Origin: an uncultured Thermoplasmata archaeon | GTDB lineage: Archaea > Thermoplasmatota > Poseidoniia > MGIII > CG-Epi1 | Length of the DNA: 64,000 nucleotides | Reading direction: 5' to 3' | Assembly: GCA_963996465.1 (NCBI GenBank) | Contig: CAXEHI010000014.1 | Span: 11,089 to 75,088 of the forward strand | Part shown: positions 4,301 to 50,903 of the stretch, one piece after another | Layout of the letters: each line of letters opens with the position of its first letter | Numbering within the stretch: position 1 is the first letter of the stretch | Position numbers and translations under genes: made by a program | Notes under the pieces: model-generated | Told to the model about the DNA's origin: nothing | Databases searched by the model: none | Seen by the model: only the letters and a program-made list of their open reading frames with translations

Positions 4301-5161
4301 ATGGTTGAAGGTAAAACTTGTCTAATAACGGGTGCATCAGACGGGATAGGAAAAGAAACCGCTCTTTCTTTGGCCAAACAAGGTGCCAAAGTAATCATAG
4401 TAGGTAGAAATCAAAAGAAGTGCGAAAATGTAGTTTCTGAAATAATTCAATTAACACAAAATAATCAGATTGAATTTCTTTTAGCAGATCTCTCTTTAAT
4501 GAGGGAAGTAAATAGTTTAGCTGAAAGAATTATGTACGGCTATAGGCATCTGGATATTCTCATTAACAACGTAGGTGCATTTTTTCGTAAAAGGGAATTA
4601 ACAGAAGAAGGTCTAGAACGAACTTTTGCATTAAATCACTTAAGTTATTTCCTTTTGACTCATAAGTTATTGCCGCTTTTAGAACATAGTTCTTCTGCTC
4701 GAATTGTAAATGTCGCTTCTATTGCTCATATACGTACTGATATGGATTTTGATAATTTGAACGGAGAGAAGAATTGGTCTTGGTTTGGGGGTGGCTGGAA
4801 TGCATACTGTTGTTCTAAATTAGCAAATATTATGTTTACTTATAATCTTTCTAAAAAATTAGAAGGAAAGCAAATTACAGCAAATTGCCTCCATCCAGGA
4901 TTCGTCGCTTCTAAATTTGGAGATAACAATGGTCTATTTTCTCGGTCTATTATCAAAACAGCTAAATTTTTCGGAGCTATAGGTGTAAAGAAAGGCTCCG
5001 AAACTAGTACCTATCTAGCTTCTTCTGATGAAGTAGAAGGGGTATCTGGCAAGTATTTTGCCTCATGTTCATTACAAAAAAGCTCAAAACAATCTCATAT
5101 TGAAAAAGATATTGAAAAACTATGGTCTATAAGTGAAGATTTCACATCTGAATATCTTTGA
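4301..5161 (+). CDS. Short-chain dehydrogenase/reductase (retinol-dehydrogenase-like SDR)
   Basis: N-terminal TGASDGIGKETA Rossmann motif and SDR-like length (286 aa). It is convergent with the next gene with a 0-nt spacer. Confidence 0.8.
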   Translation: MVEGKTCLITGASDGIGKETALSLAKQGAKVIIVGRNQKKCENVVSEIIQLTQNNQIEFLLADLSLMREVNSLAERIMYGYRHLDILINNVGAFFRKRELTEEGLERTFALNHLSYFLLTHKLLPLLEHSSSARIVNVASIAHIRTDMDFDNLNGEKNWSWFGGGWNAYCCSKLANIMFTYNLSKKLEGKQITANCLHPGFVASKFGDNNGLFSRSIIKTAKFFGAIGVKKGSETSTYLASSDEVEGVSGKYFASCSLQKSSKQSHIEKDIEKLWSISEDFTSEYL

Positions 5162-5971
5162 TTAAGTAAAAGATCTAAGGAGAACTGCTGCCATAATAAT
5201 AGTCATAATAATCATCAAAATTTCCCCTATTGCAGCAGCACCATCCTCATTTTCAATATAATGGGTATACCGTTCTTCTTTCATTTTTTGAATAGCTTCT
5301 TTTTCTATATCTGAATCATATCTAAACACCGGATTTGGACTTTCCCCCTGTGGTTTTCTTTTTCTATCCATTTCTCCTTTTGAATACGATTCTATAGCTT
5401 CTTTCATTAGTGTCGCCGCCGTAATCAATGTTTTGTAACAAGCATCTTGATACGTTTCTCCTCTTTTAATATCAATTTTACGTTTCCCCACTAAATCTCC
5501 TGCGTCTATTTCAGATGAACAAAAATGACAGCTACTTCCTATTGGAATGTCATGATATATGCTCCATGCAGGTGATGCCGAACCACGACATTCAGGTAAC
5601 AATCCTGGATGGGAATTAAGCACACCATCTCTTTTTTCTCCATATTCTAAAATCTCCCCTCTAATGATACGTGTGCCTCCAAATACAATCATTCGAGGTG
5701 AAACCCTTTCAATATGTTTCATACAATGTTCATCATTATGAATGGGTACTGTTTCTAGAGGTATATTGTTCTCCTTTGCTTGAATAGAAATCATTTTTCC
5801 AATCTCATTATTTCCAATACGGAATTCAAATTTCTTTCTTTCAGTTTCACCCACTTCTGAATCTTCTTCTATTATGAGTGCCGGTTTGAATCCAGCACCA
5901 ATAAGTTGAGATAGCATCTCTCTTCCCCATGGATGCTCCTTGATTGCCATGAATATAAAATGAGGTTTCAT
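5162..5971 (-). CDS. Formyltransferase-family protein (Fmt/PurN-like formyl_trans_N domain)
   Basis: The HPGLLPECRGSASPAWSI motif matches the formyltransferase SLLP..RG active-site signature. At 269 aa it has only the N-domain-sized fold. It is the last gene of the 9-gene operon, with a 4-nt overlap with the upstream gene. Confidence 0.65.
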   Translation of the reverse strand: MKPHFIFMAIKEHPWGREMLSQLIGAGFKPALIIEEDSEVGETERKKFEFRIGNNEIGKMISIQAKENNIPLETVPIHNDEHCMKHIERVSPRMIVFGGTRIIRGEILEYGEKRDGVLNSHPGLLPECRGSASPAWSIYHDIPIGSSCHFCSSEIDAGDLVGKRKIDIKRGETYQDACYKTLITAATLMKEAIESYSKGEMDRKRKPQGESPNPVFRYDSDIEKEAIQKMKEERYTHYIENEDGAAAIGEILMIIMTIIMAAVLLRSFT

Positions 5972-6339
5972 TTATGAGCTACCACTTTAAATTCTACAAC
6001 AATAGGTGTCGGAAGTGCGCCTACTTCAATAGTCGTGCGCGTAACTTCATATCCTTCAATATAGTCTCCATATATTTCATTGAATTTTTTAAAATCCTCT
6101 TCCATATTTGTCAAAAATACCATTATATCTACTACATTTTTCATTTCTAAGTTACACGCTTCTAACACAGCATTAACATTTCTAAACACAGCATGAGTTT
6201 GTTCTTCTATTCCTTTCGGTATCTTATCTGTTTCTGGATCTCTAGGTCCTATTCCGGATAAAAATACAAAACCACCCACTTCCTTTGCATGAACGTATGC
6301 TCCAATAGGTTTTGCAGATTTTTTTGTGTTAATCGCCAT
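5968..6339 (-). CDS. RidA/YjgF/L-PSP family protein (2-aminomuconate-deaminase-like enamine/imine deaminase)
   Basis: 123 aa with YjgF-family size and pattern (KPIGAYVHAKEVGGFVFLSGIGPRD...). It is translationally coupled inside the dioxygenase/ALDH operon. Confidence 0.75.
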   Translation of the reverse strand: MAINTKKSAKPIGAYVHAKEVGGFVFLSGIGPRDPETDKIPKGIEEQTHAVFRNVNAVLEACNLEMKNVVDIMVFLTNMEEDFKKFNEIYGDYIEGYEVTRTTIEVGALPTPIVVEFKVVAHK

Positions 6340-7288
6340 CAGTTCCTTCCATCGTTCCCATTTCTACTTGCCGATATAAATCAAGCACTTCTAAATCCCC
6401 TTCATAAACTTCAGGATCCTCTTCATCATATTCTAAATCGCCAGTTCCTTTTTCGACAGGGGTCAATGAAACCACAGCACCTCCAGTTCCCATTATTGGC
6501 TCATAAGCATGTATTTTTCCAGAATAAAGATTAGTTTGTCCCATAATTGCAGAAAGCCACCAAAATGGTTTGAAACTTACAACTTTAGGTACTCTCGCTT
6601 CTTGATGAAATTGGCGCGATAGTTGAGATACATCTTCTAGCCTCCCCTTTTCTAAATATTCTAAAAATTTTCTATTCCATTCATCATCTTTAGAAGAATG
6701 TATTTTATCATCTTCTGCATTCATGGGTGACGTAATCAATCTATTAGAAAGACTACCCACTACAACTGCAACAGCCTTTCTATTTCGTTCTTCAACTGCA
6801 TCTCTCAAAGCTTTACCCAGTACTACAGTTTCTGTTCTATTCGCATAAACATTGCTACTCACTATTATTGCTGGAATTGAATTATCTGGATTTAAGAGTT
6901 TCAAAGCAACTACAGAACCGGTATCTATAGGGAATCCTTCATAAGCTACAGTACGAGTATGAAGTCCTCTTTCTTCACATTTATCTTTGGTATAATTTGC
7001 AAATTCTGCATCTATTTTGAATTTATACGGCATACTTCCTAATTCATGAAATTCTTCATCAACATGCGTCCATTCTGGATTCGGCATTGCCTGTATTTGA
7101 TGCCCTAATACAGAAGGCCAATATGTACTATAAATTATCAATAAATCCGCATCACTTTCTTCTATCTCCTTTTTACCAATTTCAAAACCATCTCTAATAT
7201 TATTCCACCCTTTATTTTTTTCTGGACAAAGTAATGGATGAGGTAATCCAGGCACTATCATTCCTAATTTGATTATATCATTTCTCAT
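6329..7288 (-). CDS. LigB-type (class III) extradiol ring-cleavage dioxygenase, AmnB-like catalytic subunit
   Basis: 319 aa. MIVPGLPHPLL...LLIIYSTYWPSVL...YEGFPIDTGSVVA...AVAVVVGSLSN...DDEWNRKFLE resembles the 2-aminophenol-1,6-dioxygenase beta subunit and the LigB family. It overlaps the upstream paralog by 4 nt. Confidence 0.7.
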   Translation of the reverse strand: MRNDIIKLGMIVPGLPHPLLCPEKNKGWNNIRDGFEIGKKEIEESDADLLIIYSTYWPSVLGHQIQAMPNPEWTHVDEEFHELGSMPYKFKIDAEFANYTKDKCEERGLHTRTVAYEGFPIDTGSVVALKLLNPDNSIPAIIVSSNVYANRTETVVLGKALRDAVEERNRKAVAVVVGSLSNRLITSPMNAEDDKIHSSKDDEWNRKFLEYLEKGRLEDVSQLSRQFHQEARVPKVVSFKPFWWLSAIMGQTNLYSGKIHAYEPIMGTGGAVVSLTPVEKGTGDLEYDEEDPEVYEGDLEVLDLYRQVEMGTMEGTDGD

Positions 7289-8181
7289 TTTTCACCTCTT
7301 TCAGAATCCCATCCAATAATTGCATTTCCAGTTCCTATCACACTTCCATATGCATGGATTTTCGCTTCGTATTCTGGAAAATCAAGTGCACTGATTAACC
7401 AAGTTAAACTTCCTGCATCAGTCTCTGCCATTGTTTGTTCTGTAAAGTCTGGCATGATGTCTATCAATTCTCTATTTTTTCCTTTTAACATTAAATTAAT
7501 TATTTTCATATCCCAGATGTATTGATTATGATTCGTTACATGCTCTTTACTCATATCTTCAGGCAATTCAGGTTCTATTGTGAAATGTCTATGAGATAAA
7601 GAATTCGATGAAAGCAACAGTGCACGTTTGCCACTTTTTTCTATTGCTCTTCTAGTTGCTTTACCAAGTTTCAACATATTGGTCTGCATCACTTCATTTG
7701 AAAAATAGCTCGATGCACGGTTAGATGAAATCACAACTATAGGCTTGTCCCATTCTGGTCTAGTTAGGTGGCAACTAGTAATTGTTCCATAATCAATTCT
7801 AAAATCCGAATTTTCCATCATTTTAACATGTAATCCATCTTTCTCTGCCATATCATGTATTTCACGAGACAATTTTACATCAACATTCAAATCATAATCA
7901 TATCGAAAAAGATTAGGGAAAACAGGATCAACCGATTTAGATTTGAATTTTTCAACACCTAAAAAATGAGTTCCAATAAATGTTTGCCAATGTGGTGTAT
8001 GTATTACTATAACATCAAAATCTTTATCTATCATACTTTCACGCAATCGTTCATAACCCCATCTTAATTCTTCCCAACCACCTTCAGATGTAGGCTCATT
8101 TTGTGAAGGATTTTCTGCATATACTAAATGAGGTGGATGGGGTGCCAATGCTCCCATAACAATTTTTCCTTTTTCACTCAT
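7285..8181 (-). CDS. LigB-type extradiol dioxygenase paralog (AmnA-like second subunit)
   Basis: 298-aa divergent paralog of the adjacent LigB-type gene (GALAPHPPHLVY...VIVIHTPHW...). The adjacent-paralog arrangement is typical of heteromeric AmnAB/LigAB-type enzymes. Confidence 0.65.
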   Translation of the reverse strand: MSEKGKIVMGALAPHPPHLVYAENPSQNEPTSEGGWEELRWGYERLRESMIDKDFDVIVIHTPHWQTFIGTHFLGVEKFKSKSVDPVFPNLFRYDYDLNVDVKLSREIHDMAEKDGLHVKMMENSDFRIDYGTITSCHLTRPEWDKPIVVISSNRASSYFSNEVMQTNMLKLGKATRRAIEKSGKRALLLSSNSLSHRHFTIEPELPEDMSKEHVTNHNQYIWDMKIINLMLKGKNRELIDIMPDFTEQTMAETDAGSLTWLISALDFPEYEAKIHAYGSVIGTGNAIIGWDSERGEK

Positions 8182-9635
8182 TTTTCTTCACCCATTTCAA
8201 TACAGACATTTCGTAATTCCGAAAAGAAGTCTAAAGAGTATCTGCCACCTTCTCTTCCTACACCAGAGTCCTTCATTCCGCCAAACGGCACCCTCAAATC
8301 TCTTAGAAGCCAAGTATTTACCCAAACCATTCCCGATTCCAGATTTGCACTTATTCTATGTGCACGAGACAAGTCACTCGTCCAAACACTAGCAGCCAAT
8401 CCATAGTTAACGGAATTAGATATTGTAACAGCCTCCTCTTCTGATTCAAATGGATGAATAGTGGCCACAGGTCCAAATATTTCTTCTGTTGCCGTACGAC
8501 AATTAGGCGATAAACCAGAAATGATTGTAGGTTCTAAAAATGCACCATTGTTCCAAGGATTTTCCAATTTCGGCCGTTTACCTCCACACTCAACACGTCC
8601 CCCTTCTTCAATTCCCAATCTTATGTATTCTTCAACTTTATCACGATGTTCATGAGATATAACTGCCCCTAAGTCTACATTTTTATCAGAAGGATTTCCA
8701 ATTTTCATTTTCTTTGTAGTTTTTACCAATTCCTCTAAAAATCGGTCGTGAATTGTTTGTTCTACTAATATTCTAGAGCCACATAAACACACCTGTCCTT
8801 GATTCGTAAACGCCGCCTTTACTGCTCCATTTACTGCTTTCTTTATATCTGCATCAGCAAAAACTATCGTTGGATTTTTTCCACCCAATTCCAATGATAT
8901 CTTTTTAAAAGTCGAAGAAGCGGCCTCAGAAACTTTCGCTCCGGCATTCGTGGAGCCAGTAAATGATACGGCAGATACATCCCGATGTAAAGATAGCGGT
9001 TTACCCACTTTAGATCCAGAACCATGTACTAAATTAAAAACGCCGTTTGGCAGTCCAGCTTCATTCATTATTTCCGTTAATGCCGAAGCTGTTAACGGAG
9101 TCATAGAGCTCGGCTTTGCTACAATTGTATTTCCCATAACTAATGCAGGGGCGGTTTTCCATGATAGTAAATATATCGGTAAATTCCAAGGAGTTATTAA
9201 CGCAACAACTCCTAAAGGTTTTCTTAAAGTATAATTTATGGCATTCTTCATTTTATGAAATCCCAATTCATCATGACGAGCTGCACCTGCAAAAAAGCGG
9301 AAGTTAGCAATAGCTCGTGTAATGTCTGTTTCGAAAGCCAATCTAATTGGTTTACCCGTGTCTAATGATTCTAATTCAGCTAATTGTTGTTTTCTACTTT
9401 CTATAATATTCGCAATTTTTTCTAGAATATTTGCACGTTCATCTACACTTTTAGCACTCCATTCAGGCAAAGCATTCTTTGCCGCATATACTGCAGCATC
9501 CACATCTGATTTATCGCCAAGAGGTACTTTAGAAATTATATCGCCCGTAGCTGGATTTCTATTTTTCTTATATCTACCAGATACTGGGGTATGGAATTTT
9601 CCATTTATGTATTGTTTAAGCTCCATTACTTTCAT
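8178..9635 (-). CDS. NAD(P)-dependent aldehyde dehydrogenase (2-aminomuconic/hydroxymuconic semialdehyde dehydrogenase-like)
   Basis: 485 aa with ALDH hallmarks (ELGGKNP, catalytic cysteine in QGQVCLCGSRILV, EEIFGPV). It is translationally coupled to the dioxygenase genes. Confidence 0.85.
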   Translation of the reverse strand: MKVMELKQYINGKFHTPVSGRYKKNRNPATGDIISKVPLGDKSDVDAAVYAAKNALPEWSAKSVDERANILEKIANIIESRKQQLAELESLDTGKPIRLAFETDITRAIANFRFFAGAARHDELGFHKMKNAINYTLRKPLGVVALITPWNLPIYLLSWKTAPALVMGNTIVAKPSSMTPLTASALTEIMNEAGLPNGVFNLVHGSGSKVGKPLSLHRDVSAVSFTGSTNAGAKVSEAASSTFKKISLELGGKNPTIVFADADIKKAVNGAVKAAFTNQGQVCLCGSRILVEQTIHDRFLEELVKTTKKMKIGNPSDKNVDLGAVISHEHRDKVEEYIRLGIEEGGRVECGGKRPKLENPWNNGAFLEPTIISGLSPNCRTATEEIFGPVATIHPFESEEEAVTISNSVNYGLAASVWTSDLSRAHRISANLESGMVWVNTWLLRDLRVPFGGMKDSGVGREGGRYSLDFFSELRNVCIEMGEEK

Positions 9636-10732
9636 TTTTTATTTCCGTGTTCTTTAGGGTCAAAATACCATCTATCATTGTCAGGATCCCATTCATCCCA
9701 TGTATATATTTCTTTTAATGATGACAAGTATTCTGATGGCACTATTCCCGACACTAGAAATGCTTTCTGCCTTCTTAATGAGTAAGGATTTCTCAATTTC
9801 ATGCCAAGAACTCCCAAAATACCTCTAGCAATATACCATGCTGCTTGAGGGTTCCATCCATGGGCTATTTTTACCACAACACCTAAACCATTTGGATAAT
9901 TTTCGTGCTCTATTGCCATACCCAGAAGTCCATCTGCACCTTCTTTAGCTATTACTTTTCCTTTACAAGATTTTATGATAGTTGTATCTAATCGATTAAA
10001 ACCACCCACTAGGTCTGGATTTTTTACAATAGACTCCCAAATCCAATCCTCCTCTTTATTTGAAACAATACCTGCATAACACATTGCTAATTCATTCACG
10101 GTATTTGATACTGTAGGGAATCCATCTCCATCTCTAGCTATTCTTTCAGGTTCCCATTCTTCTCCTAAAAAACGTTTTACTTGTTTCAAGTATTCAAAGA
10201 AAAATTCATGGCTAGGTAATGTGTATCCAGCTCTGTTCCACCCTTTTTTTCTACACCCTCTCAGAACTGCAGCATGCTGACCTGAAGAATTAGAATACCA
10301 GCGACGCGCTCTTCTAACCTGTCTACCAAATTGTACTAAAGGAAGGTCCAGAGGAGTTTGCATCAATCCCCATTCTGCTCTAGGCAGTAATGATTGTGCA
10401 GTTTTAACATGCTCAGCAGTTCCATTATGACTTGAAACTGATATCGCTTTTTGTTCCCAACTCAAATCATTCAATTCATCAGAAAATACTTTGAGCATTA
10501 ACGGTTTCATCATGGAACGCCCATAGCATAGGACATTACCTCCAAAACTATGTATTATTTCATTACCACTTGCCCAAGATACAGCTCCATGAATTGTCGT
10601 TTCGGATACATCATTACGCCGATAATCAACTAATGGCTCCCATTCTACATCCCTCCCAGTCGGCACTTCTCCTTCTGTATCTCCTAAGGGGTCATTTGGA
10701 TATAAATTTTCAACTTCTTTAGGGTGTGTCAT
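9632..10732 (-). CDS. Asparaginase_II-family (Rhizobium-etli-type L-asparaginase II-like) amidohydrolase, function unknown
   Basis: 366 aa. HGAVSWASGNEIIHSFGGN...CYGRSMMKPLM and SNSSGQHAAVLRGC match the conserved blocks of the Asparaginase_II family as I recall them. It has 4-nt overlaps on both sides. Confidence 0.5.
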   Translation of the reverse strand: MTHPKEVENLYPNDPLGDTEGEVPTGRDVEWEPLVDYRRNDVSETTIHGAVSWASGNEIIHSFGGNVLCYGRSMMKPLMLKVFSDELNDLSWEQKAISVSSHNGTAEHVKTAQSLLPRAEWGLMQTPLDLPLVQFGRQVRRARRWYSNSSGQHAAVLRGCRKKGWNRAGYTLPSHEFFFEYLKQVKRFLGEEWEPERIARDGDGFPTVSNTVNELAMCYAGIVSNKEEDWIWESIVKNPDLVGGFNRLDTTIIKSCKGKVIAKEGADGLLGMAIEHENYPNGLGVVVKIAHGWNPQAAWYIARGILGVLGMKLRNPYSLRRQKAFLVSGIVPSEYLSSLKEIYTWDEWDPDNDRWYFDPKEHGNKK

Positions 10733-11997
10733 TTTCTAAGCTCCTCTATTCTAGGAACCACCTTTTTCATGAATGCTTTCATATTTCTTATAACTCTCTT
10801 TGAATCATGATTGAAAAAATCAAACCAAGTCATAACACAATCTTCAGGATGAAAACGCTCAACTATTTGTTCAGCTATTTCTTCTACATTTCCAATAACT
10901 GCATTATCTGCAGCTTTCGACACTTTCATTGGATCTATAGTCCCTTCAAGAGCTCCCCAATATGAATTAAGTGCTTTTTCCGCTTCTAAATTTGCTTGCT
11001 CTGTTTTTTCTCTTTCCGAAAGTCCATCTTCATCATTAATGAACACCATAATAGTTCTAGGCATATATTCTCTTTTCCAAGAACCACCTTCAGGGTGATA
11101 ATGTTCTCTCATTCGTTCATGTGTTTTTTCTATTACTTCAGGCGGCGTTATCGATAAATTAAATGTTTTTACGGGTCTTATTTTATTCACTTTTTTTTGT
11201 AGTTCTGGATCATGCGAGCCTAATATAAGATCTAGTAAATCTCTATTCCAATTTTGCGGTATATTTTTTACGTCTTCAAACTCATATCTTTTAGGTATTT
11301 CTATTTTTTCAGGCATCTCTTTCAAGCCATCCCTTTCCATAGTCGCTATCTGAACTCGATTCCAATCTTCATCACTTCGAAATAATTTTCTTTCTAGTAT
11401 TGTTTTCGATATCATATCGCTATTGACTATTTCACCATTCAATAATTTCAAGAATATTTCACAAGCTTCAGAAAATATTTGTCCTCTTAGTGCGGGCCAC
11501 GCTATTTCTTCCACAGCATCTCTCGGGACAATCCCATACGGTCTCGCCATAAATTCAAACCTTCCTGCAGAAAATCCAATACGCAGTTTACGATTCTCTT
11601 CTTTTTTAAGTCCATGAAGCGTAATGAAAGATCCTATTCTCTCAGCTATTCCTATCGGTCCTCCATGTGTTAAAAGACTCATCACAGCCGAACCAACATT
11701 TATTTTTTTTGTAGATAAAAATACTAAATGTGCCAACTGAAAAAAATCAGTACATAATCCAACTTCTCCGTTCCAATGAGGAACTACTGGGTTTTTGTTG
11801 TTTTTCTGCACTTCCGTGGAAAGATGTGCCTGTGCCACCCATGCAGTTTCAAAACCAAATTCGTCTGCAGCCTTTACTTGCTCGAAAAAAGACTCAAACA
11901 TTTCTCGTTCACTAGGCATTTCTCCTTCTACAGGGGTATGGCATATTGATAGAAAAATGTCAAATTTCATCTCAAATAGAACTCGTTCTTCCACCAT
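10729..11997 (-). CDS. Luciferase-like (LLM) flavin-dependent monooxygenase/oxidoreductase
   Basis: 422 aa. The FGFETAWVAQAHL motif is characteristic of the bacterial-luciferase-like family. It lies in the operon between the SDR and the Asparaginase_II-like gene. Confidence 0.65.
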   Translation of the reverse strand: MVEERVLFEMKFDIFLSICHTPVEGEMPSEREMFESFFEQVKAADEFGFETAWVAQAHLSTEVQKNNKNPVVPHWNGEVGLCTDFFQLAHLVFLSTKKINVGSAVMSLLTHGGPIGIAERIGSFITLHGLKKEENRKLRIGFSAGRFEFMARPYGIVPRDAVEEIAWPALRGQIFSEACEIFLKLLNGEIVNSDMISKTILERKLFRSDEDWNRVQIATMERDGLKEMPEKIEIPKRYEFEDVKNIPQNWNRDLLDLILGSHDPELQKKVNKIRPVKTFNLSITPPEVIEKTHERMREHYHPEGGSWKREYMPRTIMVFINDEDGLSEREKTEQANLEAEKALNSYWGALEGTIDPMKVSKAADNAVIGNVEEIAEQIVERFHPEDCVMTWFDFFNHDSKRVIRNMKAFMKKVVPRIEELRK

Positions 11998-12724
11998 CTA
12001 CTGGAAGACTAACTCCTCTCACAAAGCTTGCTTCTGGCGATGCTAAAAAAGCCACAACACTTCCTAATTCAGAAGGGGTTGCAAGTCTACCCTCAGGTAC
12101 AGTTTCTAACCAAGTACTTTCAACATCTTCTGTTGTACAATTGCGTTGTTTAGCTAAAGTTTTTTTCAATTCTTCTAATCTTCCAGTCGACGTAAAACCG
12201 GGAAGAACATTGTTAATCGTAATTCCTCTTGGCAGTTCTTTGGACATCGTCTTTGACCATGATGCCATTGCACCTCTTATTGTATTACTAACACCCAGTC
12301 CAGCTATCGGCTCTTTTACAGAGGTTGAAATAATATTAATAATTCTCCCATATTTTGATTGTTCCATACCAGGAAGGGTCAAACCAACCAATTTTTGAGA
12401 CGCAAGTACATGCCTTCTAAATGCCTTTTCAAATTCTTCTACTTCTGCTTTAACAATCGGTCCAGATGGCGGACCTCCTGAATTATTTATCAAAATTTGA
12501 TAGTTTCCATTCTTTTCTATGTCTTTTTTTACATTTTCTTCTAAACTTTTTAAATTTTCCATATCACAAGATATTCCATTTTTACCTTCTGCCGTACGAG
12601 CTAAAATAGTTACTTCTGCTCCTCTTTTAACAAGCGCATCAGCAGCAGCTTTTCCTATTCCTTTAGTCCCACCACACACTAATGCCCTATATCCGCTCAA
12701 GTCAGTCATTTGCTTCTCCCACAA
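11972..12724 (-). CDS. Short-chain dehydrogenase/reductase (3-oxoacyl-ACP-reductase-like SDR)
   Basis: VCGGTKGIGKAAADALVKRGAEV Rossmann motif and an NNSG motif. 250 aa. Confidence 0.8.
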   Translation of the reverse strand: MWEKQMTDLSGYRALVCGGTKGIGKAAADALVKRGAEVTILARTAEGKNGISCDMENLKSLEENVKKDIEKNGNYQILINNSGGPPSGPIVKAEVEEFEKAFRRHVLASQKLVGLTLPGMEQSKYGRIINIISTSVKEPIAGLGVSNTIRGAMASWSKTMSKELPRGITINNVLPGFTSTGRLEELKKTLAKQRNCTTEDVESTWLETVPEGRLATPSELGSVVAFLASPEASFVRGVSLPVDGGRTSSI

Positions 12725-13715
12725 AACTATAAAATTCAGAATTTTTTAATTCGGGCAATGCTTCTTTTTTAATCAATATCGTTCTAACACCCCATAAATC
12801 TGTAAAAACCCGATATCTCGCCGTTCTATCTAAATAATCTACACCAGAAGAACCACCCGTTCCTATTCTACGTCCAATCATTCTTTCAACCATACGGGCA
12901 TGCGAAGATCTCCACAATAGCATTGCTTCTTCTAACTCTACCATTGTATCGATTAGTTTTCTTGGCCAAGATAACAAAGGCAGTTCACGATATGATTCTA
13001 TAAATAAAAGTCCAGTACGACTTCGATCACATTTACCATTCGGTTTTAGAAATTCAGATGCTTGCTTGTTTACCTCTTCAAATTTATTACTAATATTTTC
13101 ACTATCATTATCAGACAACGTACGGGCGGCCTTTTCACCTAATTTAAGATGGATATTTAGGTACTCATTTACAAATTCTTCAACTATTTTATCGTCATTA
13201 GAATCATCCGGCAATGACCCCTGTATAGGTGTTCTTGAAAGCCATTTGGTAACAACTTCTTGTATTGATTTTTCATTTAATTGATTTTCTATTTTTTTAC
13301 CATCAACCCAAAAATCTCCCATTATCGCTTCCATCATTCTCATTTGTTTAGATTCAAAACCAGAAGCAGTTCCCAATTCATCTCTGAACGATAAAAATCC
13401 TTGAGGAGTCAAAGTTTCCATAACTTTCCACTGTTGTGCCATCAATCTAAAAGTTTCAATTGCTCTTTCCATGTGATGTACAGCTTTAGGTATTTCAGTT
13501 TCTTGCACATAACTCCTATCTAATGTATCCCTTGCTTGCGTTAGTTCACTAATCACAAGTTTAAACCAAAGCTCAAAAGATTGATGTACAATTATGAAAT
13601 GAAGCTCATCTGCACTTATATCTTCTTCATTTTCTTTCCACCCACTTTGTAAAGATAACAACTCTTTCAGACGCAAATATTCTGGATAACTTCCTTTATT
13701 TGTAGGTGTAGGCAT
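12702..13715 (-). CDS. kynA: Tryptophan 2,3-dioxygenase
   Basis: 337 aa. YPEYLRLKELLSLQ, HFIIVHQSFELWFK and LDRTARYRVFTDLWGVRT match the conserved TDO blocks (HxxxHQxxELWxK). It is the first gene of the operon. Confidence 0.8.
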   Translation of the reverse strand: MPTPTNKGSYPEYLRLKELLSLQSGWKENEEDISADELHFIIVHQSFELWFKLVISELTQARDTLDRSYVQETEIPKAVHHMERAIETFRLMAQQWKVMETLTPQGFLSFRDELGTASGFESKQMRMMEAIMGDFWVDGKKIENQLNEKSIQEVVTKWLSRTPIQGSLPDDSNDDKIVEEFVNEYLNIHLKLGEKAARTLSDNDSENISNKFEEVNKQASEFLKPNGKCDRSRTGLLFIESYRELPLLSWPRKLIDTMVELEEAMLLWRSSHARMVERMIGRRIGTGGSSGVDYLDRTARYRVFTDLWGVRTILIKKEALPELKNSEFYSFVGEAND

Positions 13716-17256: not shown

Positions 17257-17934
17257 TTAATAAAGGTGCATCGCTTCTTCTATTTGCCCTAATTCTATAC
17301 CCGTACTATTCGTTCCACACACGCCACCTTTCGAATTACAAACAAGGCCTGCACCTATCAATGGCATTCCAAAAGCAACTGTACCATCTCTTATCTCAAT
17401 TCCAATAATATCTTTCATAATATCTCTATCTTCTTCATTTAATTCTGGATGAACAAGCGCACCAGTAGATGAAAAACATCCTAACATTCCAACAGTTTCT
17501 ATTCCTATAAACTCTTTAGGTATTATTTCAATTTTTAGGGTTTTTTCAATTTCTTCTCTATTTTTAATCATTATTTTTGGATTACAAAATCCAGATTTAT
17601 TATTTATCAATAAATTATTTCCAGCAGCATTATTCCTGTCATTTAATATCATAAATTCCATTTTATTCTTTTTACACATCTCTTCTATTCTTTCACGTTC
17701 CCTTTCAGTAGCTATGTTGGAACATACAAGTCCATTATCATTTAAACAAATTAATGATCCAATAACTCTACTTCCACCTACTGTAATAATTTCTACCTCA
17801 GTATCAAGAGCCTTTCCTATGTCTCTATACTCTTCTTCTGAAAGGCCTGGAGGTAATAACGTCAATTTTTCTGAAGTCACACAAAAAATACCAGAGTATG
17901 GGCTATTGAATAAATCTCGTTGAATGAGTGCCAT
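17257..17934 (-). CDS. eif6: Translation initiation factor 6 (aIF6/eIF6)
   Basis: 225 aa with eIF6-family repeats (GIFCVTSEKLTLLP..., VIGSLICLNDNGLVCS...). Confidence 0.85.
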   Translation of the reverse strand: MALIQRDLFNSPYSGIFCVTSEKLTLLPPGLSEEEYRDIGKALDTEVEIITVGGSRVIGSLICLNDNGLVCSNIATERERERIEEMCKKNKMEFMILNDRNNAAGNNLLINNKSGFCNPKIMIKNREEIEKTLKIEIIPKEFIGIETVGMLGCFSSTGALVHPELNEEDRDIMKDIIGIEIRDGTVAFGMPLIGAGLVCNSKGGVCGTNSTGIELGQIEEAMHLY

Positions 17935-17938
17935 TAGC

Positions 17939-18271
17939 TTATTCAGGCAACTGAACTTCTACAGTTCCATCTTCAAATTTACGAGCTCTAACTCTTATTC
18001 TTGAAGGTGGCTTTTCAATTCCCCTTGCCCATATTTTTCTATTCACTGGCGGGTCTATGAATAATCTTTTTTCATCTCCCTTTCCAGATTTAGCAATCTT
18101 AGAATCTGTAATAACTTCTCCATCCATTTCAGGTTTCATATGTCTGGTTATATAATCCTCAATAACGCGAATTGCAACCGGTGCTCTTCTTGTACGCGCT
18201 ACATTTTTTACTTTCCTTAACGGGATGGTGTATATTCTCTCTTCAAATGCTATTTCTTCTTCATCAGCCAT
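17939..18271 (-). CDS. rpl31e: 50S ribosomal protein L31e
   Basis: 110 aa with the RIYTIPLRKV...IRV...KIWARGIEKPP pattern of eL31. Confidence 0.85.
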   Translation of the reverse strand: MADEEEIAFEERIYTIPLRKVKNVARTRRAPVAIRVIEDYITRHMKPEMDGEVITDSKIAKSGKGDEKRLFIDPPVNRKIWARGIEKPPSRIRVRARKFEDGTVEVQLPE

Positions 18272-18277
18272 ATTTCA

Positions 18278-18433
18278 TCACTTCTTCAATCTACCTCTTC
18301 TCCAAAAATGCCTTTTTGGATGGTTTACAACTCTTCTATTAGTTCTTTGCATTACCCAAGCAGGAACTCTTCTGTTTCGCTTAGTTAATTTTTGAAGGCG
18401 TATTTTTTTTCCGTATGGCTTTATACTAGACAT
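18278..18433 (-). CDS. rpl39e: 50S ribosomal protein L39e
   Basis: 51-aa ORF found by hand: [51 protein letters not shown], a typical eL39 sequence. It is below the 60-aa cutoff of the ORF track. Confidence 0.75.
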
Positions 18434-18862
18434 TTATTCACCTTTCTTATTTTTTAATTCTAGAGCTATTCCATCTAACATGGATTGGCCTCTAGGGCTT
18501 ATTTTTCTACCTTTACCCTTTTCATGAGTTATCAATTCTGCAGCTTCAAGCTGTTTCATTACGGTTCTAATTATTTTCCTTCCACCAGGATGACTTTTGT
18601 TAGGCTTTCCCCCTCTATCTTTAGATCCAGAATACATTTTGGATAATCTTTCAGTTCCCATTGGCCCTTCTAAGTATATCTTTCTCAATATAGATGCCGA
18701 TCGCATATACCACCATTCATCCGAATCAGGTGCATTTTCTCTATGTGCTGCAGTTTTAGTGGAAACACTCCATTCTGGAATGCTAATATTTTCCATTTTT
18801 TTTAGGGCTTCAGCTAAATCCGATACTAAGCTTTGTCCATGAACATCGTAAACTGTTGCCAT
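18434..18862 (-). CDS. rps19e: 30S ribosomal protein S19e
   Basis: The ORF runs to 18895, but S19e proteins start at M(T/A)TVYDV, so I place the start at the internal Met (MATVYDVHGQSLVSDLAEAL...). Confidence 0.85.
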   Translation of the reverse strand: MATVYDVHGQSLVSDLAEALKKMENISIPEWSVSTKTAAHRENAPDSDEWWYMRSASILRKIYLEGPMGTERLSKMYSGSKDRGGKPNKSHPGGRKIIRTVMKQLEAAELITHEKGKGRKISPRGQSMLDGIALELKNKKGE

Positions 18863-18920
18863 TTTGACACCTTTCGAGAGGGCTTTGCCAGTCAAAGCAT
18901 ATTATAAACTTAATCCTCTC

Positions 18921-19193: not shown

Positions 19194-19774
19194 TATCTAC
19201 AATAGATTCTAGCAACATCGTTTGCCATTGCCATTTTACTTTTTTTCCCACCTTTCAACATTATATTCGTAATCCTAAATCTGCGATTTTCATGAGTTAT
19301 ATTGCGTCCAATTTTAAACACCTCTTCAAATGAATATTTTTTGTAAAAAGTTTTAGTATATTCTCCTTCATTAAATGAAAAATTAACCTTTATTTCACTT
19401 ATATTTCTTGACCATACAACAATTCCCTTCCGACTTTCTATTCGGCTGATATTCTTATCTCCCTTTTCAATTCTAGTAATTTCTAACGTTCCTTTTGGAT
19501 GTAAAACCCTTTCTCCAATTTGTAGGTAATCACCTTCTTCTACCTTCAAAACATCTTTATGCGTTTTATCTCCATCAGAAATCAATAATTTAATCTCAAT
19601 CATTTTTTTTTCTTTAATCGTTCTCGTAGTTACATTTTCACACTCAGTGCATTTTACAATTCCATCAAAGGAATTATTTTTCTTATTACGATTTTTTAGA
19701 ATATCATGTATTTTTTCATCTTCGCAATATTTGCATGGAAGCCATATCTGCTCAAATTCCTCTTTGGTCATCAA
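19193..19774 (-). CDS. Hypothetical zinc-ribbon protein
   Basis: 193 aa with an N-terminal CKYC...CTEC C4 ribbon and a basic C-terminal domain. It overlaps purH by 4 nt. I recognise no family. Confidence 0.4.
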   Translation of the reverse strand: MMTKEEFEQIWLPCKYCEDEKIHDILKNRNKKNNSFDGIVKCTECENVTTRTIKEKKMIEIKLLISDGDKTHKDVLKVEEGDYLQIGERVLHPKGTLEITRIEKGDKNISRIESRKGIVVWSRNISEIKVNFSFNEGEYTKTFYKKYSFEEVFKIGRNITHENRRFRITNIMLKGGKKSKMAMANDVARIYCR

Positions 19775-21357
19775 TGCCGAAAGTGTCTTTCTCCCGTAAA
19801 AACCATAGACACTCCTATTTTATTTGCACTATCGATAACTTCCTGATCCCTTATTGAGCCACCTGATTGAATAATCGAAGTTACTCCAGCTTCGGCAGCA
19901 GCTTCTATACCATCTGGAAATGGAAAGAAAGCATCAGATGCCATAACAGTACCTTTCGCATCCGGTCTAGATTTGAAAGAAGCAATTTTCACAGAATCAA
20001 CTCTAGACATTTGTCCAGCACCTATGCCAATGGTTCGTTTACCCTTTGTAAACACTATTGCATTAGATCTAATATGTTTCATCAATCTCCAACCATACAT
20101 TAAGCCAACCCATTCTTCTTCCGTAGGTTTTTTGTTTGTAACTACCGTACATTCTTCTCTAGTTACTCTTTTTTTATCAGATTCTTGAACAAGCCATCCA
20201 CCGGCAACAGATTTCATCTGTTTTCCCGCTTTATATTTTCTAATATCTCCAACCTCTAATAATCTCATATTCTTTTTCTGACTTAATATTTCTAAAGCTT
20301 TTTTAGAGAATGAAGGTGCGATTATTCCTTCTTTAAATGATTCTACTATCTTATTGGCCGTTTCAGTATCTACTTCTCTATTAATGCCAATTATTCCACC
20401 AAATGCCGAAGAAGGATCCGTTTCAAGGGCAAAATCATACGCTTCTGATATTATTTCAGATGAGGCTACACCACAAGGATTGGTGTGTTTGATTATTACT
20501 ACAGTAGGTTCTTCAAAATCAGCTACTATTGCTAACGCACCATCAAAATCAAGTATATTGTTGTAGCTAAGTTGTTTTCCTTGCAATTGTTTAGCTGTCG
20601 CTATAGATGGCGTTTCTACCCTAGGATTTACATAGAATGCACCATTTTGATGAGGGTTTTCTGCATATCTTAATTCACCCTTTCTTTTTCCGCTTATATT
20701 CAAATATTCATTAGATAAAGTATCTATATCGAAACGTTCGGATAATTCATTCTGTATGTATGTATCATATTTTGCAGTATGCTGAAACGCTTTCAAAGCT
20801 AAACGCTCTCTCATTTCTACATCTACCCCCCCTTTCTCAATTGCTCGTATTACTTCATCATAATCTTGAGGTTCTACAACTACACACACTCTAGAATAAT
20901 TTTTAGCTGCAGCTCGAATCAAACTAGGTCCTCCTACATCAATCATTTCTATCAATTCAGATAATGTTTTCTCTTTCTTTGCAGTCTCTTCAAATGGATA
21001 CAAATTTACTATAACTAAATCTATATCTTCTATTCCCAATTCTTCTTTCTGTTCTCGATCTTCTTCTCTGGCTAATATACCTCCAAAAACTTTTGGATGT
21101 AAAGTTTTCACCCTTCCATCCATAATCTCTGGAAATCCAGTTACTTGTTGAACACTTTTTACTTCAACCTTTTCATTTTCAATAACTTTTTTTGTACCGC
21201 CAGTGGATATTATTTCAATTCCACATTTATTCAATCTTTTTACAAATTCAGCTAATCCTTCTTTATTGCTTACACTAATCAAGGCCCTTTTCACAGATAA
21301 ATTTTCCATTTTATTTTCGGTTGACAATTCCAAATTACCTCTATTTTTTGCTTTCAA
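19771..21357 (-). CDS. purH: Bifunctional AICAR transformylase / IMP cyclohydrolase PurH
   Basis: KRALISVSNKEGLAEFVKRL...GGTKKVIE...RVKTLHPKVFGGILAR matches the MGS-like IMPCH domain, followed by the AICARFT domain. The true start is probably the internal Met near 21309. Confidence 0.9.
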   Translation of the reverse strand: MKAKNRGNLELSTENKMENLSVKRALISVSNKEGLAEFVKRLNKCGIEIISTGGTKKVIENEKVEVKSVQQVTGFPEIMDGRVKTLHPKVFGGILAREEDREQKEELGIEDIDLVIVNLYPFEETAKKEKTLSELIEMIDVGGPSLIRAAAKNYSRVCVVVEPQDYDEVIRAIEKGGVDVEMRERLALKAFQHTAKYDTYIQNELSERFDIDTLSNEYLNISGKRKGELRYAENPHQNGAFYVNPRVETPSIATAKQLQGKQLSYNNILDFDGALAIVADFEEPTVVIIKHTNPCGVASSEIISEAYDFALETDPSSAFGGIIGINREVDTETANKIVESFKEGIIAPSFSKKALEILSQKKNMRLLEVGDIRKYKAGKQMKSVAGGWLVQESDKKRVTREECTVVTNKKPTEEEWVGLMYGWRLMKHIRSNAIVFTKGKRTIGIGAGQMSRVDSVKIASFKSRPDAKGTVMASDAFFPFPDGIEAAAEAGVTSIIQSGGSIRDQEVIDSANKIGVSMVFTGERHFRH

Positions 21358-28679: not shown

Positions 28680-31600
28680 ATGAATCGTAACGTTTTGCCG
28701 CTTTTAGTGTGTGCAATACTCATTTCCACTCCATTATTTATGCCTCTTTCAGAGTCATCCAAAAACGACAAAGATGTTCAAGGCTGGTGGTCTAATTATT
28801 CTAGGGATAAAGATAGGGATGGAATCAGTGATGTATTAGAATGGAAATTACAACAAGGCGATCGTTTCTTTGATTCAGATTCAGCACGGGTTTTCATAAG
28901 ATACAATCATCACCCTACAGATTCTGATATTGAAAAATTAGAAAACTTAGGAATAGATGTAACTTATCGTGCTCAATATATCGATTTAGTTGCTACTACA
29001 ATGCCTCGTAATTTGGTCTATCCAGTTTCTACTTGGAACGGCGTTGTAATGCTCGATGACATCGGTAAAGCAGTTCCACATATGAATGAAGCCGTTCCTG
29101 CAATGGGCGTAAATCAAGTTTGGGAAAATTACGGTATTTATGGAGAAGGAATTTCTATCGCTATAGTTGACACTGGGGTCGATAATGCCCATGTTGGTTT
29201 AGATGATATGGATGATAATCAGTTCACTATGGATGATCTAAAAGTTGTAGCTTATTATGATGCAGTTCAAGATAATGTAGTATGTTCACCATGCTTACCT
29301 GGTGAATCTTTAGATAGTGGTACACACGGCACTCATGTTGCAGGAATAGCTGCAGGTACTGGTGATGGGGATGCAGCACCAGACGGATCACGCCATATCG
29401 GCGTCGCACCAAAAGCTAGCTTAGTCAACGTTCTTTCATGTTGTGATGGCGATATTGAAGACATTATCAGAGGCGTCGAATGGACAATAACTAATCAAAA
29501 ACTAGTAGAACCAAATATCAGAGTTATGACATCCAGTCTCGGCGAACAACAAATCGAATTTCATATCGATAATGATGGTAGCTCTGCTTGGAGCCAAGTT
29601 GTTGATGCCGCAGTAGAATCTGGCCTCGTAGTTACTTTGAGTGCAGGTAATGAATTCGGCTCAGCTACTGCAGCCGGTTGCAACACTATTGACTCACCTG
29701 GCGATTCAAGATTACCCATAACAGTCGCTTCTCTTGACAAAGATTTGAGTTTGGCAATATATAGTTCCAGAGGTTACACTTCAGACGGAAGGGTCAAGCC
29801 AGATGTCGCTGCTATAGGAAGTAGTATCATGGCCCCTAACAAAGGTACTGGAACAGGTTACACCAGTAAGAGTGGAACTAGTATGGCTACACCTTTGATG
29901 GCAGGTATTGTAGCTTTAACTTTAGAGGCTAATCCCGATTTAACTCCAACAGAAGTTAAGGATACATTAGTTGCAGGTTATTCTATCGAACGAGAAATAT
30001 TAGATGATGATATAGATGCAGCATCCAATAATTGCTCAATTGCAGAAACTAGACCAGATAATGAATACGGGTATGGTCAGGCTGATCCAAAAACTTTCGT
30101 AGATATTTCTGGAAATATCGATGCTTCTTTGAGTATCAACTGGTCGTTAGAACCTGAATATATGTTAGTGAATGATTCTTACGTAGAGGTCAAACCAAGA
30201 ATATACAACGGAAGTTGGATTCGGGGCGTATCTGATTCTTCTGGTCAATCAGTTAGCATTGGTGTCGAAGTTCGCTTTGGCGTTGATAGTTGGTCTTTAG
30301 CAGACGATTTGTCAGATAATGGTGATTGGAGTGAGTGGCAAATCCAAGTCCCCGAACAGACCAAAAAGGGTAATCAAACATTATATGCAAGATTAGTGGT
30401 CAATTCTGAACAAATGTCTCCTATGGCATCAGCATCCGTAGTTCTTCTTAATGAATATGATACTGATGATATTGGCTCTATTTCTTCTCTTTCAGATTCA
30501 ACAATTCTTTTACTAACAGTATTATTGCTCGCTTTAACTGTCGGAGTAGGTATTCCCGTATGGAAACGTTATCAAAAATTAGTTAACAGTAGTACAGAAA
30601 ATCAAAAACAGAATGTCAATCATCTCTTATTATTTAGATCTTTAACAGATGCTGCTCAGATTGCATTACTATACTGGACGGCTATGCGTTTCTTTTTACG
30701 GGATGAGGGGGCAAGCCAATCTTTAGTTTCCGCCTATTACGGAATCGCGCTATTGGTTTTGGGCGTCAGTTTAATTTTTTGGGGTCACATAGCCGATACA
30801 TACGGTTCTAGAAGAAAAATCCTTCTTTACACCTCACTTGGCTGTACTATACTCTATCTCTTTATTCCATTTTTAGGCATATATGGTACCATTTTCATTT
30901 CTATACTTCTATTGATGCTTCATGGTTCAGGTCGTATACCTAGGGCTATCGCTTCTGAATACTATCCAAATCGTCAAGGTGAATTTAATGGCGTTTTCTG
31001 GGGAATGTTCGCTTTGATATATTCCGTAGCATACCTCGCTGCTCCATCAATATATGAATCTCTTGGTATGAATGCAATAGTCTTGTTCTGTTTATTATTG
31101 AATATTGCTGCAGCATTCTGCGCATTCCGTTTAAACGAAGTCGATATTATGGCTGGAACATTAGTTACCGACTCATCTAATCATCTCAATTTTAATGTAA
31201 ATTCTTTCTCTTTGGATTCTCTACGTTTCAAGAATTCGTGGGTTAAATGGATTTTACTAACAGTTTTCTTAATCTATATTCCTCGAGGCGTCATCGTTTA
31301 CAATGCTCCGAATTATTTTGACGATATTGGCTATGATAGGAGTTTTGTCGGTGTAATAATGGGATATTCAGTTATAGCATCTGTTATTCTTTATCCATGG
31401 CTCGGTTCCATTTGTGATCGTTTAGGAGCTTGGCAGGTACTTCTCTGGTCTGCCTTATTGTATATTCTTCTATGGGGCACTTTCAGTTCTGCTGTATCTA
31501 CTCATCTATCTGCATTTATTTTTATAATTCCCGTAATTCCATTTTTACGTACTTCTAGAGATACATTAATGTCTCAATTAACTGCCTTAGATGAACGGAG

Positions 31601-50111: not shown

Positions 50112-50903
50112 GTGAAGCTGGCCGTTCTACAAGCTGAAGTTAGGAGGGGGGACGTAGTCTCAAATTTATCAACTGTAAAAAGATTGGTTGAAGAATCTAA
50201 GGAAGAAATAAATCTTCTAACTTTACCTGAATTATTTGTTACAGGTTACAATCTTAGAGATGGCTTGAACGACGTGGCAGAAACTATACCTGGAAACGGC
50301 CCCGCTTTGTCTGGTCTATGTGATTTAGCCGCCTCTCATAATATGTACATAGCTGCAGGAATGGTAGAAAAATCATCTGGAACTTTATACAATTGTGCTG
50401 TTTTCGTTGGACCCAATGGATACATAGGTCATTATCGCAAACAGTACCTTCCTAATTTTGGTCCATTCGAAGAAAAAACATATTTTGGAGAGGGTGAGGA
50501 TATTCACGTATTCGATACAGAGATAGGCAAGATAGGGATTCAAGTATGTTATGATCTTTTCTTTCCAAGGCAATCAACAGCATTAGCTCGAGGCGGTGCC
50601 GAAGTAATATTAAATTTAGCCGCCAGCCCCACAACATCTCGTCCGTTATTTCACAGAGTTCTTCCTGCCCGAGCGATAGAAACTACATGCTTCTGGGCTT
50701 TCGCTAACAATGTTGGCGTTCAAGGCTCATTGTCCTTTGCAGGCGAATCAACAATATATGATCCACGTGGAAAAGAGATAGCTACTATACCTAAGTTTGA
50801 AGAAGGAATAGCAGTAGCAGACATCTCATTGGATGACATTTCCACCTTTAGAGATTTGAGGCCAGTGTTACGAGATGGAGCTTTACGTGAAGAAACTTTA
50901 TAG
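50112..50903 (+). CDS. Carbon-nitrogen hydrolase (nitrilase-superfamily amidohydrolase)
   Basis: The catalytic Cys context is GIQVCYDLFFP, and the Glu/Lys blocks of the CN-hydrolase fold are present. 263 aa. Confidence 0.8.
   Translation: MKLAVLQAEVRRGDVVSNLSTVKRLVEESKEEINLLTLPELFVTGYNLRDGLNDVAETIPGNGPALSGLCDLAASHNMYIAAGMVEKSSGTLYNCAVFVGPNGYIGHYRKQYLPNFGPFEEKTYFGEGEDIHVFDTEIGKIGIQVCYDLFFPRQSTALARGGAEVILNLAASPTTSRPLFHRVLPARAIETTCFWAFANNVGVQGSLSFAGESTIYDPRGKEIATIPKFEEGIAVADISLDDISTFRDLRPVLRDGALREETL

Follow-up and report, generated by a model that had tools for sequence, protein, structure and literature searches.

The question raised by this locus is how the formyl group that tryptophan 2,3-dioxygenase (TDO) leaves on its product, N-formylkynurenine, is disposed of when no gene for a recognised kynurenine formamidase lies nearby. 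The locus is part of a 64-kb stretch of contig CAXEHI010000014.1 (the whole stretch is hereafter called the window) from an uncultured Marine Group III (MGIII) archaeon, the nearest genome record being CG-Bathy1, with amino acid identities of 87–94% across the operon concerned. Nine minus-strand genes follow one another with start/stop overlaps of 4–26 nt at every junction, and constitute a translationally coupled operon headed by TDO. Their order is TDO, an atypical short-chain dehydrogenase/reductase (SDR), a luciferase-like flavin monooxygenase (LLM), an asparaginase-like hydrolase (AsnII), an aldehyde dehydrogenase (ALDH) resembling 2-aminomuconate-6-semialdehyde dehydrogenase (AMSDH), the two subunits of a 2-aminophenol dioxygenase (AmnB and AmnA), a RidA-family protein, and a formyltransferase-fold protein (FT; nt 5162–5971, 269 aa, ATG start). 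FT was correctly identified as the terminal gene of the TDO operon in the original prediction, which proposed that it captures the formyl group of N-formylkynurenine. We see an even chance that FT takes the formyl group off N-formylkynurenine, or off a later N-formyl-arylamine, and delivers it to tetrahydrofolate (THF) or to water; we infer substrate, direction and acceptor from the residues of the protein and from its gene neighbourhoods.

Pfam scans covering nearly all open reading frames (ORFs) of at least 100 aa in the window revealed neither a cyclase-type nor an alpha/beta-hydrolase kynurenine formamidase, and KMO, kynureninase, 3-HAO and ACMSD were all absent as well. A CN-hydrolase gene (nt 50112–50903) was considered as a source of formamidase activity and rejected, as it adjoins NAD synthase and its product is most like a nitrilase or the NadE glutaminase domain. 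The absence of a formamidase, from which the original prediction started, thus stands for the canonical types within the window, but a rival candidate inside the operon, the Ser-Lys hydrolase AsnII, had been overlooked.

FT has the Rossmann-like formyltransferase fold, and its match to PF00551 (Formyl_trans_N), at 35.9 bits and E=8e-9, exceeds the gathering score of 26.1. The catalytic block N119-S-H121-PGLLPECRG130 (nt 5582–5617, minus strand, as are all FT features given here) carries the Asn and His of the triad together with the SLLP-type loop, and aligns both with N106/H108 of PurN and with the motif INFHPGLNP of sugar N-formyltransferases. The third triad residue, Asp156 (nt 5504–5506), lies inside HFCSSEIDAGD and aligns with Asp144 of PurN. 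Pairwise BLASTP against Escherichia coli PurN gives the correspondence N119/H121/D156 to N106/H108/D144. Across an alignment of 32 sequences reaching down to 26% identity, His121 and Asp156 are invariant and Asn119 is at least 90% conserved; P122, G123, P126 and G130 share with H121 a complete lack of variation. The segment HFxxxExDxG is conserved as well. The fold and the HPGLLPECRG block (residues 121–130) reported at the outset are therefore borne out by Pfam and by alignment, and the Asn/His/Asp triad, suggested as a check, is present and conserved. So is a counterpart of the pterin loop, a further check: G98-G-T-R-I-I-R104 (nt 5660–5680) aligns with G87-F-M-R-I-L92 in the same BLASTP comparison, and G98, G99, T100 and R101 are invariant among FT homologs linked to the SDR, LLM, AsnII and AMSDH genes (hereafter the cassette). 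By this alignment the GGTRII loop is the putative folate-binding equivalent of GFMRIL in PurN, and, judged by its conserved residues, FT is predicted to be a catalytically intact member of the N10-formyl-THF formyltransferase/hydrolase superfamily.

Two further features concern the ends of the protein. A family-specific motif near the N-terminus, E12-H-P-W-G-R-E18 (nt 5918–5938), occupies the beta1-alpha1 loop, and its residues H13, P14 and G16 are invariant or nearly so down to 26% identity. It is presumed to form the second-substrate site, as its position in the fold is that at which PurN binds the phosphate of glycinamide ribonucleotide (GAR). All that follows residue 174 in the family is a short helical subdomain in place of any OB-fold tRNA-binding domain. 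In the window protein this subdomain is succeeded by a hydrophobic helix at about residues 245–268 (nt 5168–5239; predicted helix 242–268), with a maximum Kyte-Doolittle value of 2.58 over 19 residues at residue 247. Such a helix occurs only in the closest subclade (the window FT, P0002, P0005 and L009) and is missing from homologs of 238–241 aa; it is possibly a membrane anchor. One homolog, P0004, has an N-terminal extension of 148 aa that appears hydrophobic by eye.

FT fits none of the established families with which it was compared. Identity with methionyl-tRNA formyltransferase (Fmt) was rejected, there being no match to PF02911, only helices past residue 174, and a TIGR00460 score of 36.4 bits against a cutoff of 201.5. 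PurN was rejected on a TIGR00639 score of 34.1 bits (cutoff 150.1) and on the replacement of the GAR phosphate loop by EHPWGRE. For PurU there is neither an ACT domain nor a match to TIGR00655, and even the bacterial homolog P0125 reaches only 27.5 against 285.95. The ArnA and sugar N-formyltransferase models PRK08125 (38.7 against 777) and PRK07579 (31.8 against 238) fare no better, and sugar-nucleotide genes adjoin FT in none of the 80 closest loci. KynB (PF04199) and AFMID were rejected as homologs for their different folds, and only a functional analogy to them is proposed. FT falls instead within a proposed cassette-linked clade of the Poseidoniia, the members of which share at least 50% identity and the blocks EHP[WY]GREML and N[SA]HPGLLP[ED]CRGSASPAWS, and adjoin SDR-LLM-AsnII-AMSDH; this clade of proteins of about 240 aa appears to be a distinct one acting on small molecules. 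Annotations from the Joint Genome Institute (JGI) label the archaeal family 'methionyl-tRNA formyltransferase'. This is a wrong label, an over-annotation, because the tRNA-binding domain is absent and archaea are not known to formylate initiator tRNA.

Conservation of the locus was examined by a genome scan with a pattern derived from a narrow alignment, using one genome per species. It returned 410 FT-related loci, of which the best 80 were kept, and the nine window proteins were mapped onto these and onto eight metagenome loci. Among the best 80 there were 78 archaeal-type loci (a few bear the labels of bacterial metagenome-assembled genomes, MAGs, though their synteny is archaeal), and in these the cassette adjoins FT wherever the contig is long enough. 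In MGIII the order is TDO-SDR-LLM-AsnII-ALDH-AmnB-AmnA-RidA-FT, with an additional alpha/beta hydrolase gene between ALDH and AmnB in about half of the loci (L001, nt 5121–6089, for example) that is not found in the window. TDO heads the operon, in the same order, in 23 of the 23 MGIII loci with sufficient upstream contig. The additional hydrolase is YheT/PRK10985-like (182 bits, below the cutoff), and could be either a meta-cleavage-product hydrolase or an alternative formamidase.

In Marine Group II (MGII) the order is FT-SDR-LLM-AsnII-ALDH, with FT at the head, in 46 of 46 loci. FT is always directly upstream of SDR, and on two contigs the two genes are joined in a single in-frame ORF (L075, nt 9986–11551; L086, nt ~7729–9213; 521 aa, containing both Pfam domains), while in the other 44 loci they are separate and directly adjacent. 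AmnB-AmnA-RidA lie within 10 kb of the cassette in six of the 46 loci (L004, L054, L057, L075, L085 and L086), and TDO is adjacent to it only in L075. TDO is nonetheless widespread in MGII, at a separate conserved locus where it is paired with a thiolase. In MAG BH13 the TDO-thiolase pair is found on contig JAERST010000005 and the FT cassette on JAERST010000007 of the same assembly. At the MGII TDO loci L169–L174 and L182–L186, TDO and an acetoacetyl-CoA-type thiolase belong to a block comprising NFACT, GNAT, TDO, thiolase, Rpb6, CtaA, CtaB and an HMGL-like gene, a pairing which hints at acetyl-CoA, reached via glutaryl-CoA, as the end point of tryptophan carbon. The notion that FT is tied to TDO as such was accordingly dropped, since its constant partners in MGII are SDR-LLM-AsnII-AMSDH and TDO is located elsewhere with the thiolase. 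The link to the TDO operon drawn in the original prediction is thus correct as a tight link to the pathway and incorrect as a link to TDO itself: FT is a constant member of one pathway, the genes of which are in some cases distributed over two or three loci. The formate-dependent FAICAR synthetase PurP is encoded beside TDO in several MGII lineages (L173, L175–L179, L183–L185) and directly after the FT to RidA cassette in L075 (nt 17803–18915); this may represent a second route for formate carbon, or mere synteny.

The case for removal of the formyl group begins with chemistry. N-formylkynurenine, as released by TDO, is an N-aryl formamide. Enzymes of PF00551 make or break the N-aryl formamide of their cofactor (at N10 of the p-aminobenzoyl group), and in PurU and in the hydrolase domain of FDH the triad hydrolyses this bond. 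Because these triads already act on the same type of bond, FT may be modelled as standing in for kynurenine formamidase, with either N-formylkynurenine or an N-formyl-arylamine formed later (2-formamidophenol, for instance) as substrate, and with its Asn/His/Asp triad working as in PurU, FDH or PurN. This is supported by the intact and conserved fold, triad and PurN-like folate loop, and by the strict synteny in MGIII and MGII with an AMSDH homolog, an enzyme of the lower kynurenine/2-aminophenol pathway. One acceptor would be N10 of THF, yielding 10-formyl-THF and sparing the ATP cost of formate-THF ligase; the other would be water. Exchange of a formyl group between two anilide-type nitrogens should be about thermoneutral, and the flanking irreversible oxygenations would draw it forward. 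The host makes folates and uses 10-formyl-THF, as both PurH, the 10-formyl-THF-dependent AICAR transformylase/IMP cyclohydrolase (nt 19771–21357, minus strand; NF002049, 712 bits against a cutoff of 402), and FolC, folylpolyglutamate/dihydrofolate synthase (nt 56780–57925, minus strand; TIGR01499, 281 bits against 162.65), are encoded in the window. In engineered Pseudomonas, formate from N-formylkynurenine feeds the folate one-carbon (C1) pool only via the ATP-dependent ligase (bioRxiv 10.1101/2024.10.04.616593).

Relatives of FT outside these archaea supply two links of another kind. On one bacterial contig (L188, nt 10001–12006) the stop codon of the FT homolog P0125 (41% identity, E=1e-44) is 8 nt before the start of a kynureninase gene (TIGR01814, 277 bits against a cutoff of 246), which is followed by a branched-chain-type amino acid ABC importer; TDO was not found within the 17.5 kb examined at this locus. 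The position directly upstream of kynureninase is usually occupied by kynB. In P0122 (47% identity), which has the LLPECRGSASPAWS block unchanged, the FT-like domain is joined in frame to the C-terminal domain of FolD, which catalyses the interconversion of 10-formyl- and methylene-THF. As this fusion comes from a single JGI contig of 1094 nt, it may be a true fusion or reflect a lost stop codon between neighbours, and it is a single observation, FolD being found beside FT neither in the window nor in any other collected locus. P0125 thus links the family to kynurenine metabolism independently of the archaeal operon, and P0122 links it to the 10-formyl-THF pool. Together with the folate loop and the use of 10-formyl-THF by the host, the FolD fusion favours a folate-bound fate of the formyl group, so that, if FT does remove it, we lean slightly towards transfer to THF over hydrolysis. 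The capture idea of the original prediction is accordingly supported in part, by operon context, the kynureninase linkage and the FolD fusion, while sequence does not decide between THF, water and the opposite direction.

That opposite direction, in which FT would be a conventional N-formyltransferase moving formyl from 10-formyl-THF to an amine of the pathway, is the reading to which the wider family points. Formyl comes from folate in every characterised member, and the FolD fusion would equally suit FolD supplying 10-formyl-THF. FT at the head of the MGII cassette takes the slot that TDO has in MGIII, as if both supplied the same N-formyl intermediate. Distant relatives are fused to or near EctC, EctB-type aminotransferases, GNATs, TauD and methyltransferases. 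Variants would have FT re-formylate free kynurenine or an arylamine for entry into N-formyl-dependent steps, or protect the arylamine during flavin-peroxide chemistry. Such a reaction would, however, incur a C1 cost in a catabolic route without obvious benefit and still require a deformylase. The bacterial FT-kynureninase operon is also far easier to reconcile with deformylation ahead of kynureninase, the known substrate of which is free kynurenine. We regard the conventional direction as unlikely on balance.

The contexts of the distant homologs deserve separate mention. Those below 40% identity lie near class-III aminotransferases, amino acid permeases, GNATs, radical-SAM enzymes and AMP-ligases, and the cassette is beside none of them in 80 metagenome loci. 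In others the FT-like domain forms one protein with an ectoine synthase, GNAT, TauD or methyltransferase domain. The fusion of EctC to a distant FT member (L091, nt 9584–10729; proteins P0180 and P0222) has as neighbours an AMP-binding enzyme and a class-III aminotransferase resembling EctB; the product could be a methyl-less ectoine analogue derived from N-formyl-diaminobutyrate.

Several observations weigh against removal of the formyl group by FT. Apart from 10-formyl-THF, no N-formyl-arylamine is known to be used or hydrolysed by a characterised PF00551 enzyme, and the known members all carry formyl from folate to an acceptor. The heterogeneous contexts of the distant members are most naturally read as pointing to forward N-formylation of an amine. 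Two bacterial homologs of 52–54% identity (L051 and L056, from a Multivoradales chromosome and a Planctomycetota MAG) lack the cassette and have unrelated neighbourhoods. Linkage to kynureninase and fusion to FolD were each seen at one locus, and the absence of formamidases applies to the window. The Ser-Lys amidohydrolase at nt 9632–10732 is another plausible formamidase, and the operons of half the MGIII relatives encode an alpha/beta hydrolase in addition. Finally, the tight coupling of FT to SDR, including the two fused ORFs, is left unexplained by formyl removal. The original prediction had named consistent association of homologs with unrelated operons as evidence against its idea. This association is not seen in close relatives (TDO is present in 23 of 23 MGIII loci), while the bacterial homologs of 52–54% identity and the distant ones do occur in unrelated contexts; the examples it gave, a tRNA-binding C-terminal domain or a sugar-nucleotide context, are found in neither the MGIII relatives nor P0125 nor P0122.

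The enzymes encoded between TDO and the aminophenol dioxygenase bear on two further alternatives. TDO (nt 12702–13715; PF03301, E=2e-56) is followed by the SDR gene (nt 11972–12724; PF13561, PF00106), the product of which lacks the Tyr-x3-Lys dyad: where FabG has NYAAAKAGL, all seven sequences compared (window, L001, L004, L006, L025, L075 and L085) have VSN--T[IVL]RGAMA. One possibility is an NAD(P)H:flavin reductase serving LLM, a function for which BLVRB is a precedent in the SDR fold; another is an enoate reductase acting towards 2-oxoadipate, a role with which the pairing of TDO and thiolase in MGII would agree. Its weak match to THF_DHG_CYH_C was judged a cross-hit on the Rossmann motif, and a role as folate dehydrogenase was rejected. 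LLM (nt 10729–11997) is highly divergent, and could not be placed by sequence, as phmmer and profile searches against the PDB yielded only marginal matches to LuxA. A structure model (predicted local distance difference test, pLDDT, 71) is nearest to luciferase, RslO1 and the type II Baeyer-Villiger monooxygenase (BVMO) 3,6-diketocamphane monooxygenase, which gives a soft, model-based preference for a luciferase/BVMO-type oxygenase using flavin mononucleotide over an F420 enzyme.

AsnII (nt 9632–10732; PF06089, E=2e-40) is a class-3 (Rhizobium-type) asparaginase-like Ser-Lys amidohydrolase/esterase that has lost its zinc site. Aligned to ReAIV and ReAV, with residue roles taken from work on class-3 asparaginases (PMC12292245), it retains Arg-Ser-x-x-Lys, SHNG and the second Lys (Arg47, Ser48-Lys51, Ser80-Lys263), and all zinc ligands are changed (Cys135 to Ser, Lys138 to Gln, Cys189 to Gly). 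It is unlikely to be a true asparaginase. If AsnII, or the alpha/beta hydrolase, were the formamidase, FT might be a 10-formyl-THF hydrolase like PurU or FDH, or a balancer of the C1 pool, co-regulated with tryptophan catabolism. We think this distinctly unlikely: FT has neither an ACT domain nor any other feature of PurU and scores far below the cutoff of that model, and with AsnII spent on deformylation no enzyme of the cluster would be left to detach the side chain and give 2-aminophenol. Nor would a housekeeping role explain the synteny of the cassette throughout MGII and MGIII and the bacterial linkage to kynureninase.

ALDH (nt 8178–9635) has AMSDH structures as its top seven matches in the PDB, the best being 4i1w (E=1e-149). 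The window protein is 93% identical to that of CG-Bathy1 and only 53–57% identical to most other MGIII counterparts, against 68–80% for the neighbouring genes, a pattern suggesting that a paralog or xenolog took its place in one sublineage. The specific affinity of this ALDH matters for the remaining alternative, in which the FT-SDR-LLM-hydrolase-ALDH core degrades some other nitrogenous compound by LLM-catalysed ring-opening to a formamide, with TDO secondary in MGIII. The model for it is the Arthrobacter pyridine pathway, in which PyrA (LLM), PyrB (SDR), PyrC (amidohydrolase) and PyrD (ALDH) represent the same four enzyme classes, and most MGII cassettes indeed have neither TDO nor AmnBA within 10 kb. 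The cassette ALDH is, however, nearest to 2-aminomuconate semialdehyde dehydrogenase in particular, AmnBA-RidA repeatedly joins the cassette in both orders, TDO is present in the same MGII genome, and one family member is linked to kynureninase. A PyrABCD-like function is, in our judgement, quite improbable.

The lower half of the operon is more readily interpreted. AmnB (nt 7285–8181) is the catalytic beta subunit of a 2-aminophenol 1,6-dioxygenase (AmnB/CnbCb-like, LigB family; phmmer matches to PDB 3vsg_B, E=9e-107, and 8ihg_A, E=4e-106), and AmnA (nt 6329–7288) the corresponding alpha subunit (AmnA/CnbCa-like, LigB family; 3vsg_A, E=8e-41). RidA (nt 5968–6339; RidA/YjgF family, PF01042, E=1e-27; TIGR00004, 108.6 bits, above the cutoff) is likely a 2-aminomuconate deaminase of the AmnD type, given its amnBACD-like context. 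Going by these homologies, the LigB pair, ALDH and RidA make up the predicted equivalent of amnB-amnA-amnC-amnD.

Taken as a whole, the cluster looks like a non-canonical pathway from tryptophan to 2-aminomuconate in MGIII and MGII, reaching 2-aminophenol independently of kynureninase. LLM would convert the aryl ketone of kynurenine or N-formylkynurenine by Baeyer-Villiger oxidation, and AsnII would hydrolyse the resulting beta-aspartyl aryl ester to L-aspartate and 2-aminophenol, using the beta-aspartyl acyl-enzyme chemistry of asparaginases. AmnBA, AMSDH and RidA could then take 2-aminophenol to 4-oxalocrotonate or 2-oxoadipate, and the route would dispense with KMO, kynureninase, 3-HAO and ACMSD. 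It is proposed because it is the only chemically complete route that could be constructed from the enzymes present. The full combination, with FT as an N-formyl-arylamine:THF formyltransferase harvesting C2 of tryptophan as 10-formyl-THF alongside the Baeyer-Villiger branch, is put forward tentatively, being doubtful as a whole. Searches of the accessible literature turned up no account of such an enzyme or of this cluster, whether under formyltransferases that act on N-formylkynurenine, kynurenine in Poseidoniales, Baeyer-Villiger conversion of kynurenine to 2-aminophenol, or a cluster of LLM and asparaginase II.

Elsewhere in the window, an ORF of 1045 aa (nt 28680–31817, plus strand) joins a subtilase (Peptidase_S8) domain to an MFS transporter domain, an unusual fusion unless it is an artefact of assembly or ORF calling.

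MGII and MGIII archaea are among the most abundant heterotrophs of the ocean, and their use of amino acids has been deduced from genomes alone; we know of no cultured representative of either group. The cluster is conserved across both orders, and in it the five middle enzymes of the canonical kynurenine pathway are replaced by four uncharacterised ones. Were FT to remove the formyl group, the kynurenine formamidase step would have a third solution, unrelated to the other two. If FT used THF, no other PF00551 enzyme would have been shown before it to work physiologically in the direction from formamide to folate, conserving C1 without ATP. The Baeyer-Villiger route, if real, would add a new branch to tryptophan catabolism, one present in the ocean's most abundant planktonic archaea. 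The analysis also corrects the widespread database label 'methionyl-tRNA formyltransferase' for the archaeal family, and yields candidate assignments for LLM, the asparaginase-like hydrolase and the Tyr-less SDR.

Compared with the known PF00551 enzymes (the ArnA N-domain, WlaRD/VioF/WbkC, the Fmt N-domain, ALDH1L1/FDH, PurN and PurU), FT scores far below every curated equivalog cutoff, lacks the OB-type C-terminal domain, the ACT domain and the GAR phosphate loop, and has its own EHPxGRE motif. Its context is the catabolism of aromatic amines, whereas theirs is purine, tRNA or sugar-nucleotide metabolism. With kynurenine formamidase, whether the cyclase-fold zinc enzyme KynB or the alpha/beta hydrolase AFMID, FT shares the proposed reaction and a similar gene position (in a TDO operon, or upstream of a bacterial kynureninase), but its fold and catalytic machinery are unrelated, and while the known enzymes free formate by hydrolysis, FT may pass the formyl group to THF. 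The concept of C1 capture is that of FTCD and glycine formiminotransferase, which transfer to THF the C1 unit left on nitrogen by ring-opening catabolism of histidine or purines. These differ from FT in fold, in having N5 as acceptor and in using formimino or N-formyl amino acids as donors, and have no sequence kinship with it.

The lower half of the operon is homologous to the amnBACD, cnbC and nbaE-F genes of Pseudomonas, Comamonas and Burkholderia (AmnB, AmnA, AMSDH and a RidA-family deaminase). The bacterial genes follow funnelling enzymes for nitroarenes or aminophenol, whereas the archaeal set follows TDO and four enzymes foreign to those clusters, and genes for 4-oxalocrotonate decarboxylase, hydratase and aldolase are absent. 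With the canonical kynurenine pathway the operon has in common TDO as the first enzyme and AMSDH and a deaminase as late ones. The five middle enzymes of that pathway are missing from operon and window, and in their place are FT, the atypical SDR, LLM, AsnII and a LigB-type 2-aminophenol dioxygenase.

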